From the NCBI GenBank assembly GCA_951406725.2, contig OX597842.1, forward strand, positions 11,222,001 to 11,286,000: a stretch of DNA of 64,000 nucleotides. Direction: 5' to 3'. Of the stretch, positions 4,465-52,955 are shown in pieces. The notes below the pieces were generated by a model. It was not told the DNA's origin. It ran no database searches and was given only the letters and a program-made list of their open reading frames with translations. Within the stretch, counting starts at the first letter, position 1. Every line of letters begins with the position of its first letter. This DNA is from Octopus vulgaris (taxonomy: Eukaryota). Made by a program: the position numbers and the translations under genes.

Positions 4465-4769
4465 AAATGAAAGAATGGAGTCGAACGACGATTTAACAAA
4501 ATCCCTTTATTCTCGACATATGTTTCGAAGACTGCATATGCTTAATTCCGAAGGAATAAAGGGTGCATTATGCCGTCTTCTCATCAGGAAAGACAAGGAA
4601 CTTGTGTCAGCATCTTGACGAACAAAAACTTTTAGATGACTGCCCACACGGTGTCCATAGTGATAATGCACCCTTTATTCCTTCGGAATTAAGAATATGC
4701 AGTCTTCGAAACATATGTCGAGAATAAAGGAATTTTGTTAAATCGTCGTTCGACTCCATTCTTTCATTT
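4465..4769. mobile_element. HHR-bearing mini-element with 107-bp inverted repeat
   Basis: 4465-4571 is the near-perfect reverse complement of 4663-4769. A partial copy lies at ~18891-18996. Confidence 0.85.
4502..4600 (-). ncRNA. Type I hammerhead ribozyme
   Basis: Minus strand: UUCCUUGUCUUUC-CUGAUGA-GAAGAC...GUCUUC-GAAA-CAUAUG-UC/GAGAAUAAAGGGA. Stem II has 6 bp, stem III is palindromic, stem I has an internal loop. GUC cleavage predicted between 4515 and 4514. Confidence 0.85.
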
Positions 4770-5077
4770 ATCTATAAAAAAACACACAAATTTCCACACG
4801 AAAGCACATGATTTCTGCCCTTGGCATGTGGCTTCAACCGTGCTTTCTGATGTAAATTTGCTTCCCGGGTATCGGTTAACCGAATTATCCATACTAGGAT
4901 AATTTATTCAACTACTTAAACATTTATATATAGATATAGATATAGATATATATACACACACACACACACACACACACACACACACACACATATATATATA
5001 TATATATATATATATATATATATATATATATATATATATATATATATATATATATATATATACATATATATATATAG

Positions 5078-6657
5078 TATGTAAGAGAGTCCTAGCAAGA
5101 CCACTGCAGTTCCTCTTTCAGAGCTTCCTTGCAGCTGGCAAACTTCCAAGAAAACTGAAGGAAGGTCCATTCATAAATGAGGTAGCAGAGCGGAGGCCAA
5201 GAACTACAGACCTATCTCTCTGACCTCACACATCAGCAAGGTCATGGAACGAATAGTCAGAAGGAAACTAATCACCTTCCTTGAAGAAAATGACTTGCTG
5301 CCTGACACCCAACATGGTTTCCGACCAGGAAGAAGCTGCTTAACTCAGCTCCTGCAGCACTATGACTGGGTGCTGAAACAACTGCTCAACCACTCAAATG
5401 TGGAAGTCATATATCTCGACTTCGCAAAGGCCTTCGATAAAGTCGATCATGGAATGATATGTCACAAACTGCGTGATCTTGGCATAGTTGGAAAACTAGG
5501 AGAATGGCTTCATGACTTTCTGAAGAATAGAAGTCAGGTGGTAGCACGCAAATAGTGAGCGGTGTTCCGCAGGGCACTGTTTTGGGACCACTACTGTTCA
5601 TAATGGACCTCTCAGACATGCCCTCAGCCACGCAGAGAGCCACGATCACAAGTTATGCAGATGATACAAAAGTTTCACAGGCAATACAGAACCCTGAAGA
5701 CACTAAGCACCTGCAATGTGAGCTGGACGAAATATACAAGTGGGCTGAAAAGAATAGCATGCAGTTCATTGCTGAAAAGTTTCAAGCTTTATACTATCAG
5801 CATGCAAAACTAAATGCAATACCCAATGAATACACTGGACCCGGAGGGATTGCAATCCCAGAGGCACAATCAGTGCGTGACCTGGGTATTCACATGAGTG
5901 ATGACGCGACCTTTCATGTACATGTTGCTAAACTGACAATGAAATGTAGACGGCTGGCTGGATGGATTCTTAGAACCTTTAGAACAAGAGAACAAGAAAC
6001 CATGATGGTCCTCTGGAAGACACTTGTCCTAAGCCACTTTGACTATTGCTCTCAGCTATGGTCACCATCCAGTGTCAAGTTGATCACAGAACTTGAGGCG
6101 ATCCAACGAAGCTACACGAAGAAGATAGCCTCTGTGCAGCATATGAGCTACTGGGAGAGACTCAAGAGATTAAAGCTCTATTCCCTGGAGCGTAGGCGAG
6201 AAAGATATGCCATAATATATATCTGGAAGATCCTGGAAGGTCTTGTCCCAGACTTTGGCATCGAGAGTCACACAAATGCCAGAACCGGACGCCACTGCGT
6301 AGTACCAAGGACTCCAAATTTGCCATCAAGATGTAGGACAAGATATTGTGATAGCCTGGGCTTCAGAGGCCCACGGCTCTTCAATATCCTCCCGAAGAAC
6401 CTGAGGGACCTGCATGGTGTAGATGCGGATGTCTTTAATGTAGGACTGGATTTCTTCCTGTCAGGTGCCCCGGATGAACCAACTTCACGGCAGGAGGTGC
6501 AGATGAGGGCAGCTGCATCGAACTCTCTCATGCATCAGATGGCGTTTGCTAAAAAGCATCCGTGAGGTAAAACCGTATAGCAAACCAAATGGCGGTGCCC
6601 CAGCATGGCCACAGCTCATTAGCTGAAACTGGAAAAATCAAAATCAAAATCAAAATC
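5078..6657 (+). mobile_element. 5'-truncated CR1-type LINE (reverse transcriptase) with frameshifting deletion, inserted in (TA)n
   Basis: ORFs 5244-5555 and 5555-6565 carry NYRPISLTS (just upstream), QHGFRPGRSC, YLDFAKAFDKV, SGVPQGTVLGPLLF and YADD. In-frame stop near 5178. 3' (AAATC)n tail at ~6635-6657. Confidence 0.93.
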
Positions 6658-6715
6658 ATATATATATATATATATATATATTTCTGTAAATGTAATATGT
6701 GACAATTATTCAGTA

Positions 6716-6784
6716 GCCATGTAAAACTCCGAGTTTCGGATGCCGAGGTGGAAATCCACGCCGCCATCTCTTCAGTTATCCGGC
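6716..6784 (-). ncRNA. Type I hammerhead ribozyme in a short inverted-repeat element (6683-6890)
   Basis: GCCGGAUAA-CUGAAGA-GAUG...CAUC-C-GAAA-CUCGGAG-UU/UUACAUGGC, with one extra C before GAAA. Inverted repeat 6683-6721 vs 6785-6824. Family fragments at ~7823-7920 and ~45330-45380. Confidence 0.65.
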
Positions 6785-50350: not shown

Positions 50351-51714
50351 AACCCTTCCTATGACGTTTCTTAAAATATTAGCAAGGAATATCGTGGCCC
50401 TGGGTGGGGTTGGACATTAACTAAGGAACCAACCACGTCCTGATTATGTTTTCGGTAAAGATCTTTGGTGTTATGCTCTCAGGGTCTTTATTTATTATTT
50501 TTTTTTGTCTTTTGCAGAATCCACGTCACAGGAAACTATTTCCTTACCAATTTGCACCGAATTTCGCAGGAAATAATCTTGAAAATCGGTTTAATGGGAT
50601 TTTAGTAGTTCTTCGTTGGCTACGCGAAGAAATGGGAATTACGATGGGAAAGTGGAGGCCTGGGGGAGTTCACTAACACACACACACATACACACATATA
50701 CACTACAAGCGCTTACACGTACATGTGTTCTCAATTCACATACATGCACATATATACACTCACATATATATAAACACATACACACACCCTCCATCTCACA
50801 CACATATACAGACACACATACTCATGCACATACATACATTAACAATTTACATTCACACACACACGCACTCACATATATATACACACATATACGTATATAT
50901 ATACATACATTAACAATTTACATTCACACACATACACAATCACACACACATGAAAACACTAACACATACGCACACACGCACTTATGCACACTCACTCACA
51001 CACACATATACAGACTAACATATACAAACACTCTCCATACATACACATACACACCGTTACGCATACACATACATCACAAGACAAATACACACACACACAT
51101 ATACACACACAAACATATACACACACCTTCCAACACATGCATACGCACATACATTCACAAGTCTCATACACACACATACACACGCCCTCCAAAACACACG
51201 CATACTCACATTCAAAAGTCACATACATACACACATACCAAACACACAAACACATATTCACGCCACCAACACACGTGCATACACACAATCAAAAGTCACA
51301 CACACACATACACACACAAACACATACATACGTCCTCCAACACACACGCATACACACAATCAAAAGTCACACACACACACGCCCTCCAAAACACACGCAT
51401 TCAGACATTGAAAAGTCACATGCACACACAAACACATACACACGCCCTCCAACACACACACTCATGCACACATACAAACACGTACAAACACACAAATACA
51501 CTTTCACCCAGACATATACTCCGACTTGGTCAATGCGATACGCATTCACACAGTCACACACTCGTAAACAGGCACACGGTCAAAAACACATACGCAGAGA
51601 CGCAGACACATTTAACCTAGAATCTCCTCCATTCCGTCCCTTTCCGGTGTTCTTATTGATTTTCCTGCTCTCCTCAAAAATCACTCACCTCTTCTCGCTT
51701 TACATCACTTTTAT

Positions 51715-52140
51715 TGAGACATAGCATATCAAGGACTACATCATCTGAATGTATAGTATTTGTGGTTATAGTCGTTCTTATTGTTGTTGCTGTTGTTTTA
51801 GCCCCAGGTCTGTCCTCATCCAGACGGACCTATGATCAAGGATGTTCCAGCTGTGACAATCCCATCTTTTATTCAGTCATAGTGTATCTATGACTCCATT
51901 ATCTAATGTATAGTATAGGAGTTAGTATTAGTAGCTATAGTTGTTGTTTAACCCCATCAGTCCCGATCCAGACAGACCTATGATCAAAGACATTCCACCT
52001 GTGACCATCCCATCTATAATTCAGGCATAGTGTATCTAAGACTACATTGCCTAATGTACAGTATAGGAGTTAGTATTAGTGGTAATAGTTGTTGTTGTTG
52101 TTGTTGTTGTTGTTGTTGTAGTTGTTGTTGTTGTTGTTTG
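51715..52140. repeat. ~158-bp tandem repeat (2-2.5 units), probably a SINE tail ending in (CAA)n on the minus strand
   Basis: GACCTATGATCAA...CCCATC...TAGTGTATCTA...GTATAGGAGTTAGTATTAGT repeated. Confidence 0.7.
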
Positions 52141-52582
52141 TAAAACTATAAGGGTTATAATACCTGATGTGTTTGTTGTTTTCACGGATATGTTGCGTTC
52201 GGAATATTACCTTCTTGTCTGTTAGAATACGACATACATTCGACTCCTTTAAAAACAAAATGAAATTTTGCTTACATTTGTCGTTATTGCATACATGCAC
52301 TCACATACCCAAACACAAAGGTTGTTCTTCAGTTCTTCAGTCTCCAGAAAAATGGCTAAAACTTTGCCCTATTTTTGATTATACCACATGCTACATATTT
52401 ACTATATCATGCCTTGATACTGTGTGGACTAAGACCCCCGTTGACCGGCCACTGGTATTTATAGTGTTAAACACTTGCGGTATGCAAATTAGGGACTCGT
52501 TCATAGAGTAACTGCTGCATTTGTTGAGTATATAAACAGTTTGGTTGCTTGTTTCTCCGGAGACTGTCAGAATGATTTAGAC

Positions 52583-52625
52583 GCCTCTGATGAGAAACCA
52601 ATAAGGTTCGAAAATCGATTAAGGT
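52583..52625 (+). ncRNA. Type I hammerhead ribozyme in DR-bounded element 52318-52704
   Basis: GCCU-CUGAUGA-GAAACC-AAUAA-GGUUC-GAAA-AUCGAU-UA/AGGU. Palindromic AAUCGAUU; cleavage predicted after 52621. Confidence 0.8.
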
Positions 52626-52955
52626 TGTTCATCGTATTTTTTTTTTCAGTCTGCGAAGAAATAGCTAAAATTTGCCGTTTATAATTATACCATATGTTGT
52701 ATATGCAGTGGTACCTTGACTTACGTGTTTAATTTGTTCCCTGACGGAGCTCGTAACTCAAATTACTCGTATGTCAAATCAAATTTCCCCATTGAAATAA
52801 ATTAAATGCCATTAATCCGTTCCGAGCCCCCACCAAAACCGCAATTATTTTTGTTATTTGTTTTTAAATAAGAAAAATTTATTTATAAATAACGAATATT
52901 GTATAAAAAAAACAGTACAATAGAATGTACTGAAATAAACTGGTTTTATTAAGCA

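Follow-up and report, generated by a model that had tools for sequence, protein, structure and literature searches.

Type I hammerhead motifs in a 64-kb region of the Octopus vulgaris genome very probably mark 3′ ends of elements of a Penelope-like system

The window, the whole stretch of 64,000 nucleotides of Octopus vulgaris contig OX597842.1 analysed here, carries a hammerhead-like string at all 18 coordinates given in an initial annotation made from the letters alone. Each string is embedded in a multi-copy dispersed repeat, and the type I hammerhead layout claimed there held at all 18 sites. The motifs fall into 13 families or subfamilies: five assigned to Penelope-like element (PLE) ends (A, B, C, D2, F), five tandem (E, G, I, J, K), two short-monomer (H1, H2), and D1, placed in none of these. 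Family A, a putative Hydra-like PLE 3′ end, forms a two-arm insertion (4465..4924, minus strand) with a hammerhead of canonical core and palindromic helix III (4511-4591, minus) and an inverted arm (4663-4924) holding only the 3′ half of the ribozyme. Family B, likely a Hydra PLE 3′ end, is also a two-arm insertion (6684..6887, minus), and its hammerhead (6722-6778, minus) has a canonical core plus one additional C preceding G12. Family C, a putative Neptune/Nematis-like PLE 3′ end, has two copies with doubtful hammerhead-like motifs, one at 7928..8195 (plus; motif 8030-8069, whose core has A9C and whose helix III is non-palindromic) and one at 42140..42697 (minus; motif about 42316-42360). 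Family D2, a putative Hydra PLE 3′ end, likewise has two copies, 30389..30725 (plus), whose hammerhead (about 30598-30688, plus) has one mismatch in helix I, and 32657..32917 (plus), whose hammerhead (about 32796-32890) is decayed. Family F, a putative Neptune PLE 3′ end (35757..35993, minus), carries an intact U3-A8 hammerhead (35810-35846, minus). The D1 copy (29860..30101, minus) contains a decayed hammerhead (~29980-30070) of which locus L079 holds an intact copy.

The other families are interspersed with these. Family E is an ORF-less head-to-tail unit of ~370 nt (33626..34023, minus), and its hammerhead (about 33713-33760, minus) has a U3-A8 core and, in the window copy, one helix III mismatch. 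Family G, an ORF-less tandem unit of 596 nt, forms a two-arm insertion (38745..39683, plus) with an intact hammerhead at 39300-39399 (plus) and a partial one at 38926-38997 (minus); family I, an ORF-less tandem unit of 486-489 nt, forms another (40020..40538, minus) with an intact hammerhead at 40143-40249 (minus). Family J is a young ORF-less tandem unit of 362 nt, present as a two-arm insertion within (TA)n (43765..44373, plus), and carries two intact U3-A8 hammerheads, at 43937-43978 (minus) and 44102-44143 (plus), with a predicted cut after 44137. The older ORF-less tandem unit K, ~300 nt (52318..52708, plus), has a hammerhead at 52583-52625 (plus) with a bulge in helix II of the window copy. 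Two monomers of H1, about 210-230 nt in length, lie at 39746..39955 (minus; minimal hammerhead ~39844-39880, carrying U4C and one additional A following A9) and 49100..49310 (minus; minimal hammerhead about 49197-49235, also U4C). H2 consists of a long arm (42772..43330, minus; minimal hammerhead 42870-42907, A6U) and a short arm in opposite orientation (43315..43512, plus; decayed minimal hammerhead about 43386-43424). A 19th hammerhead-like motif (34098..34142, plus), overlooked by the initial annotation together with three partial copies, is kin to a motif in locus L174 and to the motif at the 3′ end of the Neptune-like element in locus L092.

Motifs were scored with our own type I descriptor, in which CUGANGA (or its U3-A8 form), GAAA and UH are joined by three helices and open at helix I; the core had to be canonical or U3-A8, with at most one further core change and one optional extra base. 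It superseded an earlier descriptor, too strict on helix II and on the core, that had given four matches. Eight matches were obtained in the window at a score of at least 20 (4502, 6716, 35806, 39300, 40143, 43937, 44102 and 52583), seven of them at 22 or above. The initial annotation had proposed shuffled sequence and an Rfam scan as checks. The former bore it out: at the score of at least 20, shuffling gave means of 0.04 (50 global dinucleotide shuffles) and 0.08 (50 shuffles within 500-nt blocks) with a maximum of 2, and the reversed window gave no match. In a wider set of 1.47 Mb, made up of partly overlapping and mostly family-enriched loci, 400 descriptor matches were found versus 2 in the reversed sequence. 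The Rfam scan gave no match in the window at gathering score; at E ≤ 10, the 150 matches listed of 733 were microRNA models on microsatellites. This Rfam result, and the resemblance of several insertions to long inverted repeats, would suit chance folding within AT-rich repeats, or DNA transposons of the hairpin (MITE-like) type. Such an origin is nevertheless next to untenable: the shuffled and reversed controls were near zero, the reading is already refuted for the 12 motifs belonging to families with intact folds, and the fixed ends of the arms are unequal and their inner junctions scattered, unlike terminal inverted repeats. The MITE reading was rejected on these unequal ends.

Beyond the eight passing motifs, four (29977, 30598, 32796 and 33713) are decayed copies whose perfect fold is found in the family majority (D2, E) or in another copy (D1, at L079). 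The majority of copies passes the type I core in families A, B, D2, E, F, G, I, J and K, and D1 does so through its other copy. The remaining six motifs (8027, 42316, 39844, 49197, 42870 and 43386) are doubtful as ribozymes, since the majority cores of their families depart from conserved catalytic positions: A9C with a non-palindromic helix III in family C (8027, 42316; 1 of 27 copies passes), U4C in H1 (39844, 49197; 2 of 47) and A6U/C in H2 (42870, 43386; 2 of 33). Helix III is wholly self-complementary in 13 of the 18 window copies. Pairing was said to be kept despite differing helix sequences, and this held in seven sequence-aligned sister motifs of the E/J group, a set chosen as descriptor-passing sequences: 96% of 101 cells were paired and 8 of 15 pairs were altered on both sides, including the C3-G8/U3-A8 swap, against 22-52% in slid controls. 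The 18 motifs are genuine: they represent copies of hammerhead RNA predicted from sequence to self-cut, roughly half in a decayed state. As for the dozen unrelated families that had been claimed, the unusual diversity stands, with 49 hammerhead clusters in the 1.47 Mb of loci, but E/J, D1/D2 and H1/H2 are related pairs.

Other copies of five families disclosed what lies upstream of the hammerhead, and the suggested link to PLEs was supported there by GIY-YIG ORFs of Hydra-, Neptune- and Nematis-like types. Within the 1.5 kb upstream, a same-strand ORF was present in 6 of 24 loci for A (553-584 nt upstream), 4 of 29 for B (at uneven distances), 7 of 23 for C, 4 of 21 for D2 (1082-1097 nt) and 8 of 22 for F (614-1153 nt). 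In A, C, D2 and F several copies run unbroken into the GIY-YIG ORF at consistent distances, and B does so less cleanly. Both RVT_1 and GIY-YIG domains (the latter modelled by PF01541) were found in the family F ORF; the family C ORF pieces comprise RT-like and endonuclease parts, and those of A, B and D2 the endonuclease part only. Pfam scores of the Hydra- and Nematis-like endonucleases were below cut-off (E 0.004-0.1), the family A endonuclease had no Pfam match, and a weak homologue search of the family B endonuclease against longer proteins returned 67 candidates, none significant. The B and D2 proteins contain the Hydra motif CxCX5C; the clade labels are read from such linker motifs rather than from a tree with reference sequences. 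The genome contains intact, Neptune-like 781-aa ORFs with RT and GIY-YIG, and downstream of these lies a U3-A8 hammerhead. Truncation at the 5′ end, an inverted truncated copy and a tail at one end were all seen in A, B, C, D2 and F. As read from these copies, the families, with seven motifs, are 3′ ends of 5′-truncated PLEs, B being the weakest case.

The initial annotation had regarded all host elements as independent, non-coding mini-elements. Absence of coding capacity is true of the window copies, in which tblastn with 10 PLE probes gave no match, and was contradicted for families A, B, C, D2 and F, so that 7 of the 18 motifs would be truncated ends of protein-coding PLEs. That all 13 families are independent non-autonomous ribozyme elements, as the window copies and the ORF-less E, G, I, J and K might suggest, is very improbable: continuity into GIY-YIG ORFs refutes it for A, C, D2 and F and speaks against it, less cleanly, for B.

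Families E, G, I, J and K (six motifs) are ORF-less tandem units of ~300-600 nt, that is, candidate retrozymes by their sequence organization. The corresponding 1.5 kb upstream contained no same-strand ORF in 22 E, 24 G, 16 I, 27 J or 21 K loci, and the longest ATG ORF in G, I, J and K dimers encodes 21-46 aa. Tandem spacings were 596 nt (G), 486-489 nt (I), 362 nt (J) and 284-317 nt (K); the tandem nature of E is given by a head-to-tail junction at 11 loci. Contigs of four presumed-RNA runs cover unit J and are uninformative on its ends, circles or level. The published view that most single minimal hammerheads are truncated PLEs (PMC4209133) would extend to a reading in which autonomous PLEs left every family behind as a truncated end (solo pLTR) and local duplication of DNA produced the tandems. 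H2 (extended on its 5′ side by about 400 nt) and D1 may qualify, as perhaps may H1, because the loci reach only 1.5 kb per match and the probes covered PLEs other than Penelope/Poseidon. As an account of all families it is quite improbable: near-identical arrays of G, I and J, arranged head to tail, recur at numerous unlinked positions, flanked each time by (TA)n and with no ORF in 67 loci, and E repeats its junction at 11. Comparison of the ORF-less units with the 3′ ends of nine autonomous elements, a sample far from complete, revealed no homologous pLTR; the similarity seen between unit E and the 3′ end of the Neptune-like element in L092 proved to come from a nested neighbour rather than a homologous end.

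Circular folding of G, I and J was strong (z -5.4, -8.1 and -7.8), and that of K, from one decayed copy, was not (z -0.5). Together with the very many divergent families in which pairing is kept, and the RNA circles known from published work for coral, mussel and axolotl retrozymes, this could indicate viroid-like circles copied from RNA to RNA and only occasionally captured into DNA by PLE enzymes. We consider such replication quite improbable, as young families are 98-99.6% alike across the ribozyme, as expected from few DNA master copies, and no minus-strand ribozyme was seen within a unit.

H1 and H2 (four motifs) are short monomers and represent expanded lineages with mutated cores. No unit-length tandem was found in 47 H1 and 28 H2 loci, nor an inverted copy in the 47 H1 loci, and upstream extension of H2 at two loci reached unrelated DNA without a PLE ORF. 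Given the odd cores, the non-circularly permuted SGC/CSG hammerheads (PMC10085705) were weighed for both. The permuted form was rejected: in older relatives of H the canonical core follows the type I order, which makes H a decayed type I hammerhead, and H2 copies do not preserve the downstream CUGA-like word.

A common insertion footprint joins the two main classes. The predicted preference for (TA)n was upheld, with (TA)n at the family 3′ end in 15 of 18 window copies (exceptions 29977, 33713 and 52583), against 712 of 4000 random window positions. Distances from the cut to (TA)n are bimodal in both classes, defining two fixed end sites downstream of the ribozyme, although none was clear as a second site in H1, H2 and K. 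In 32 of 37 two-arm inverted insertions one arm ended at each site (13 of 14 ORF-linked loci, 19 of 22 tandem-family loci); the fixed ends of the inverted arms are unequal, and the points where the arms meet are scattered. Two fixed (TA)n ends, one per arm, are by this analysis the apparent footprint of the PLE tail. Copy 5′ ends, with boundaries taken from BLAST in a sample biased to ribozyme-bearing arms, were not enriched at the predicted cut (4 of 281 within 4 nt versus ~5 expected if uniform).

These features agree with descriptions of PLEs elsewhere. As in the Neptune, Hydra and Nematis clades in the parts of Craig et al. drawn on here (10.1101/2021.04.23.441226; PMC8557442), the endonuclease is a C-terminal GIY-YIG, linker zinc fingers are CX2-5CxxC, with CxCX5C without CCHH in Hydra, and (TA)n bias, partial tandems, an inverted truncated copy and a tail are present; the end sites are separated by about 40-155 nt here versus a 30-40 bp tail there. 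Two internal reverse-transcription starts matching the genomic tail are also described for the PAc Poseidon of Anolis (PMC11167929), where AT-rich DNA was cleaved on both strands and hammerhead cleavage was dispensable for insertion in vitro. The PAc footprint, as described, concerns an autonomous element only, whereas here it recurs on ORF-less families.

The motifs very probably represent type I hammerheads with predicted self-cutting activity that sit at the 3′ termini of PLE-system elements, five families being truncated coding PLEs and five protein-free tandems, all likely inserted by PLE enzymes. Consistent with the portions cited of PMC11167929 and PMC8557442, a PLE protein would nick (TA)n on both strands and reverse transcription would begin at two internal RNA sites downstream of the ribozyme. 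Counted from the cut, these starts would fall about 172-177 and 235 nt downstream in J, 195 and 290 nt in G, and 130 and 232 nt in I. The two cDNAs would extend toward the 5′ end, halt at scattered points and be joined, giving inverted two-arm insertions, and a multimeric or circular template would give tandems. With a palindromic helix III, two ribozymes may cut as a dimer and release unit-length RNA, possibly circularised, as would follow from PMC4209133. Not every insertion is likely to require cleavage, a circumstance that would account for the expansion of H1, H2 and C with altered cores. Against the predicted cutting stands that, of nine Xenopus retrozyme dimers in the literature, eight failed to cut in vitro.

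The hammerheads resemble the metazoan PLE minimal hammerheads as presented by Cervera and de la Pena (2014, PMC4209133) in the type I fold, the palindromic or absent helix III, the extra base between positions 9 and 10.1, the U3-A8 swap, and the many families per genome, mostly single truncated copies with opposite-strand pairs 100-700 bp apart. Unlike those, many motifs here have helix II loops of 50-110 nt. The tandem units resemble animal non-LTR retrozymes, as outlined in PMC7229834 and 10.64898/2026.07.22.740005, in being ORF-less ~300-600-nt tandems with one type I hammerhead each, highly self-paired and coexisting with PLEs. They differ from them in PLE-type cores (U3-A8 in E and J) and in short, dispersed arrays within (TA)n, often two-armed with two fixed ends. 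For the octopus units, no matching pLTR was found among the nine autonomous ends.

A density of one motif per 3.5 kb had been claimed; it applies to the window, which is about 2.5x denser than the sampled average. Extrapolation from a 580-kb sample gave about 55 intact-looking motifs per Mb, or, across the genome, roughly 150,000 intact-looking sites and some 370,000 homologous ones. This load exceeds the published per-genome counts compared (~2,000-9,000 in the cases given in PMC4209133), with the reservation that the descriptors differ. The elements are of a known kind at unusually high density, and scale is their standout feature. The word 'ribozyme' is absent from the main text and one supplement of a 2026 common octopus repeat annotation. 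PLE hammerhead dimers were treated by Lunse, Weinberg and Breaker (RNA Biol), as cited in a passage of PMC6765202, and their lists may already include octopus motifs. It is quite possible, if a little short of probable, that the genome houses several hundred thousand hammerhead sites, an ecosystem spanning dozens to hundreds of families, in which Neptune or Hydra enzymes copy ORF-less RNA circles from two fixed starts at once and SINE-like H1/H2 (on the order of 100,000 copies) went on spreading after loss of the catalytic core. If so, it would be a natural series for testing the purpose of the PLE ribozyme and the enzyme that moves retrozymes. PLE-end hammerheads and animal retrozymes are already known, and what is at stake is which enzyme moves retrozymes and what role the ribozyme has for PLEs. 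One genome here holds coding and non-coding families with a common footprint, young near-identical copies, intact PLE ORFs and altered-core lineages, and this coexistence would make both questions directly testable.

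A hammerhead-like string was present at all 18 positions claimed by the initial annotation, and 13 families or subfamilies cover these motifs: A (4502), B (6716), C (8027 and 42316), D1 (29977), D2 (30598 and 32796), E (33713), F (35806), G (39300), H1 (39844 and 49197), H2 (42870 and 43386), I (40143), J (43937 and 44102) and K (52583). The window is AT-rich and crowded with microsatellites, and an Rfam scan of it generated no match at the gathering score. With a custom type I descriptor (canonical or U3-A8 core, at most one further core change, one optional extra base), eight window matches scored at least 20, against means of 0.04 in 50 global and 0.08 in 50 block shuffles and none in the reversed window. 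In 340 loci (1.47 Mb), which overlap in part and are mostly enriched for the studied families, 400 matches scored at least 22 versus 2 in reversed sequence, and the matches formed 49 sequence clusters, 21 with at least two members. Family-by-family genome searches, with 40 candidates scored in each, revealed dispersed copies; D1 and H2 copies were drawn from other loci.

The majority lines of A, B, D2, E, F, G, I, J and K matched the descriptor, including in families with a damaged window copy, as did 28/30 copies of A, 32/42 of B, 21/24 of D2, 18/26 of E, 22/23 of F, 41/42 of G, 29/30 of I, 60/62 of J and 8/25 of K. The D1 hammerhead was intact in the copy at locus L079, outside the window. 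Matching copies numbered 1/27 in C, 2/47 in H1 and 2/33 in H2, whose majority cores carry A9C, U4C and A6U/C, respectively, together with one additional base ahead of helix II. As older H relatives keep a canonical core at the same place, H was regarded as a decayed minimal type I hammerhead; the alternative of a permuted hammerhead was ruled out by the same relatives. The U4C core (CCGANGA) also occurs outside H1, in a Neptune-like family with a canonical-core relative (loci L092, L100 and L340 against L074; L046). In the H1 and H2 majority lines, a downstream word could base-pair with the junction between the core and helix II, which might produce an inhibitory fold.

Among seven E/J-group sister motifs aligned on sequence alone, 96% of 101 paired cells were kept, against 22-52% pairing in slid controls, and 8 of 15 pairs were altered on both sides, including C3-G8 to U3-A8, in a test biased in favour because the motifs were picked as descriptor-passing. 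Helix III was wholly self-complementary in 13 of the 18 window copies, the family C copies not being among them. J helix III is too short for hairpin closure, which fits the dimer model outlined in PMC4209133.

A (TA)4+ run stood at the modal 3′ end of 7/26 (E, lowest) to 44/47 (H1, highest) copies, fractions lowered by tandem-internal copies and second end sites, compared with 234/4000 random positions. Measured per family, the distance (nt) from the predicted hammerhead cut, after H17, to (TA)n was bimodal: ~49 and 203 in A, 42 and 109 in B, 123 and 181 in C, 36 and 155 in D2, 173 and ~235 in E, 195 and ~290-295 in G, 130 and 232 in I, and 172-177 and 235 in J. Family F used 55, with a single copy at 93; H1 and H2 had a single (TA)n site each, and K was widely spread. 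In 32 of 37 two-arm loci, insertions of two opposite-orientation copies, one arm ended at each site; four had one arm off-mode and one (H2) had both arms at the same site. These arm ends agree with what is reported of the Penelope-like element (PLE) tail and with the two internal start sites of PAc, measured in vitro and described in PMC11167929. A template defined by the cut would place copy 5′ ends there; only 4 of 281 lay within 4 nt (~5 expected), which counts against it, and cleavage was dispensable for insertion in the PAc study as presented in PMC11167929.

The genome contains many GIY-YIG matches, several inside 781-aa open frames that also match RVT_1 and have a U3-A8 hammerhead downstream. 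At L089:1842-4184, outside the window, and at other loci, many such Neptune-like RT-GIY-YIG frames are near-identical, which suggests a recently active family. Ten PLE probes translated from fetched loci were compared with same-strand sequence up to 1.5 kb upstream of each hammerhead. Counting the loci that supplied the probes, an upstream ORF was present at 6/24 loci of A (553-584 nt), 4/21 of D2 (1082-1097 nt), 8/22 of F (614-1153 nt), 7/23 of C (328-738 nt; two further matches, to other families, excluded) and 4/29 of B (217-1193 nt; one match 44% identical). The non-coding character proposed in the initial annotation thus applies to the window copies, which are without PLE coding sequence, but not to A, B, C, D2 and F elsewhere. 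The B and D2 proteins carry a CxCX5C linker without CCHH, given as marks of the Hydra clade by Craig et al. The A protein aligns to them at 30-31%, the F protein is Neptune-like, and the C protein has a Neptune/Nematis-type finger; endonuclease Pfam scores were below cut-off, F excepted. Immediately upstream of the family B insertion, window 5181-6565 (+) holds two open frames of what, from its motifs, we take to be a LINE-type reverse transcriptase fragment. A second B remnant (~7270-7940) comprises a 3′ UTR and inverted tail without a hammerhead, and a partial A copy (18922-18996) retains the 3′ half of the hammerhead only.

With the same probes, strand and 1.5 kb limit, no upstream PLE ORF was found for E (0/22 loci), G (0/24), I (0/16), J (0/27) or K (0/21). 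Tandem units measured 596 nt in G, 486-489 nt in I, 362 nt in J and 284-317 nt in K, and E had a head-to-tail junction at 11 loci. Circular folding gave z of -5.4 (G), -8.1 (I) and -7.8 (J) relative to shuffles; unit K folded no better than shuffles. H1 copies are ~210-230-nt monomers whose 5′ end is almost constant, and neither tandem nor inverted H1 copies occurred in 47 loci; H2 5′ ends vary, extending up to ~400 nt. No autonomous partner for the ORF-less units matched among nine autonomous ends compared. Locus L031, outside the window, holds a seven-copy two-arm array (2272-4548) of a 359-nt ORF-less unit, an E relative with a C3-G8 core. Unit J words were present at 91-100% in sequencing runs under seven organism codes. 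Tandem repeats of the window without a descriptor match had periods of ~102 nt (41172-41581), ~394 nt (48039-48833) and ~148 nt (51818-52096), and 63 copies of the 6-mer animal telomere repeat form an interstitial run (16818-17195).

Folds, carriers, targets and end sites are established by these data. For the mechanism, we propose that a PLE protein would nick (TA)n and prime at two internal RNA sites, yielding two 5′-truncated arms; arrays would come from tandem or circular templates, and unit RNAs would likely be released by predicted cleavage in dimeric hammerheads.

In 58 10-kb stretches at round coordinates, two of them flanking the window, 32 descriptor matches scored at least 20 (none in reversed sequence) and 77 sites were found by homology to family cores, 25 of these in 18 stretches obtained after the query set was fixed. 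The densities per 10 kb were 0.55 intact-looking (bootstrap 0.25-0.98, first 40 stretches) and 1.3 homologous (0.8-1.8) sites, which extrapolate to about 150,000 (70,000-270,000) and 370,000 sites, respectively, in the 2.8 Gb genome. The density given in the initial annotation, about 1 per 3.5 kb, is correct for the window (8 descriptor and 22 homologous sites), which lies ~2.3-2.6 times above the sample average. H2 by itself contributed 13 copies over 400 kb. Published counts, not strictly comparable because descriptors differ, include ~4,000 in coelacanth and ~9,000 in Xenopus (PMC4209133), >6,000 for a coral, where they form 16 families, as many as 120,000 for axolotl and ~5,000 for mussel.

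The motifs are real; the element kind is already known, and the families add new members to it. PMC4209133 treats hammerheads in PLEs along with the U3-A8 swap, the extra base and pairs on opposite strands; animal retrozymes and how they derive from PLEs are covered by PMC7229834 and 10.64898/2026.07.22.740005, and PMC8557442 describes non-autonomous PLEs that have head-to-tail copies. Among the papers that searches on octopus or cephalopod hammerheads, retrozymes and ribozymes returned, none has a title or abstract opening describing these families, though Lunse et al. may cover them. What stands out is the scale of the hammerhead load, the single insertion footprint common to coding and non-coding families, and the expansion of lineages with altered cores.
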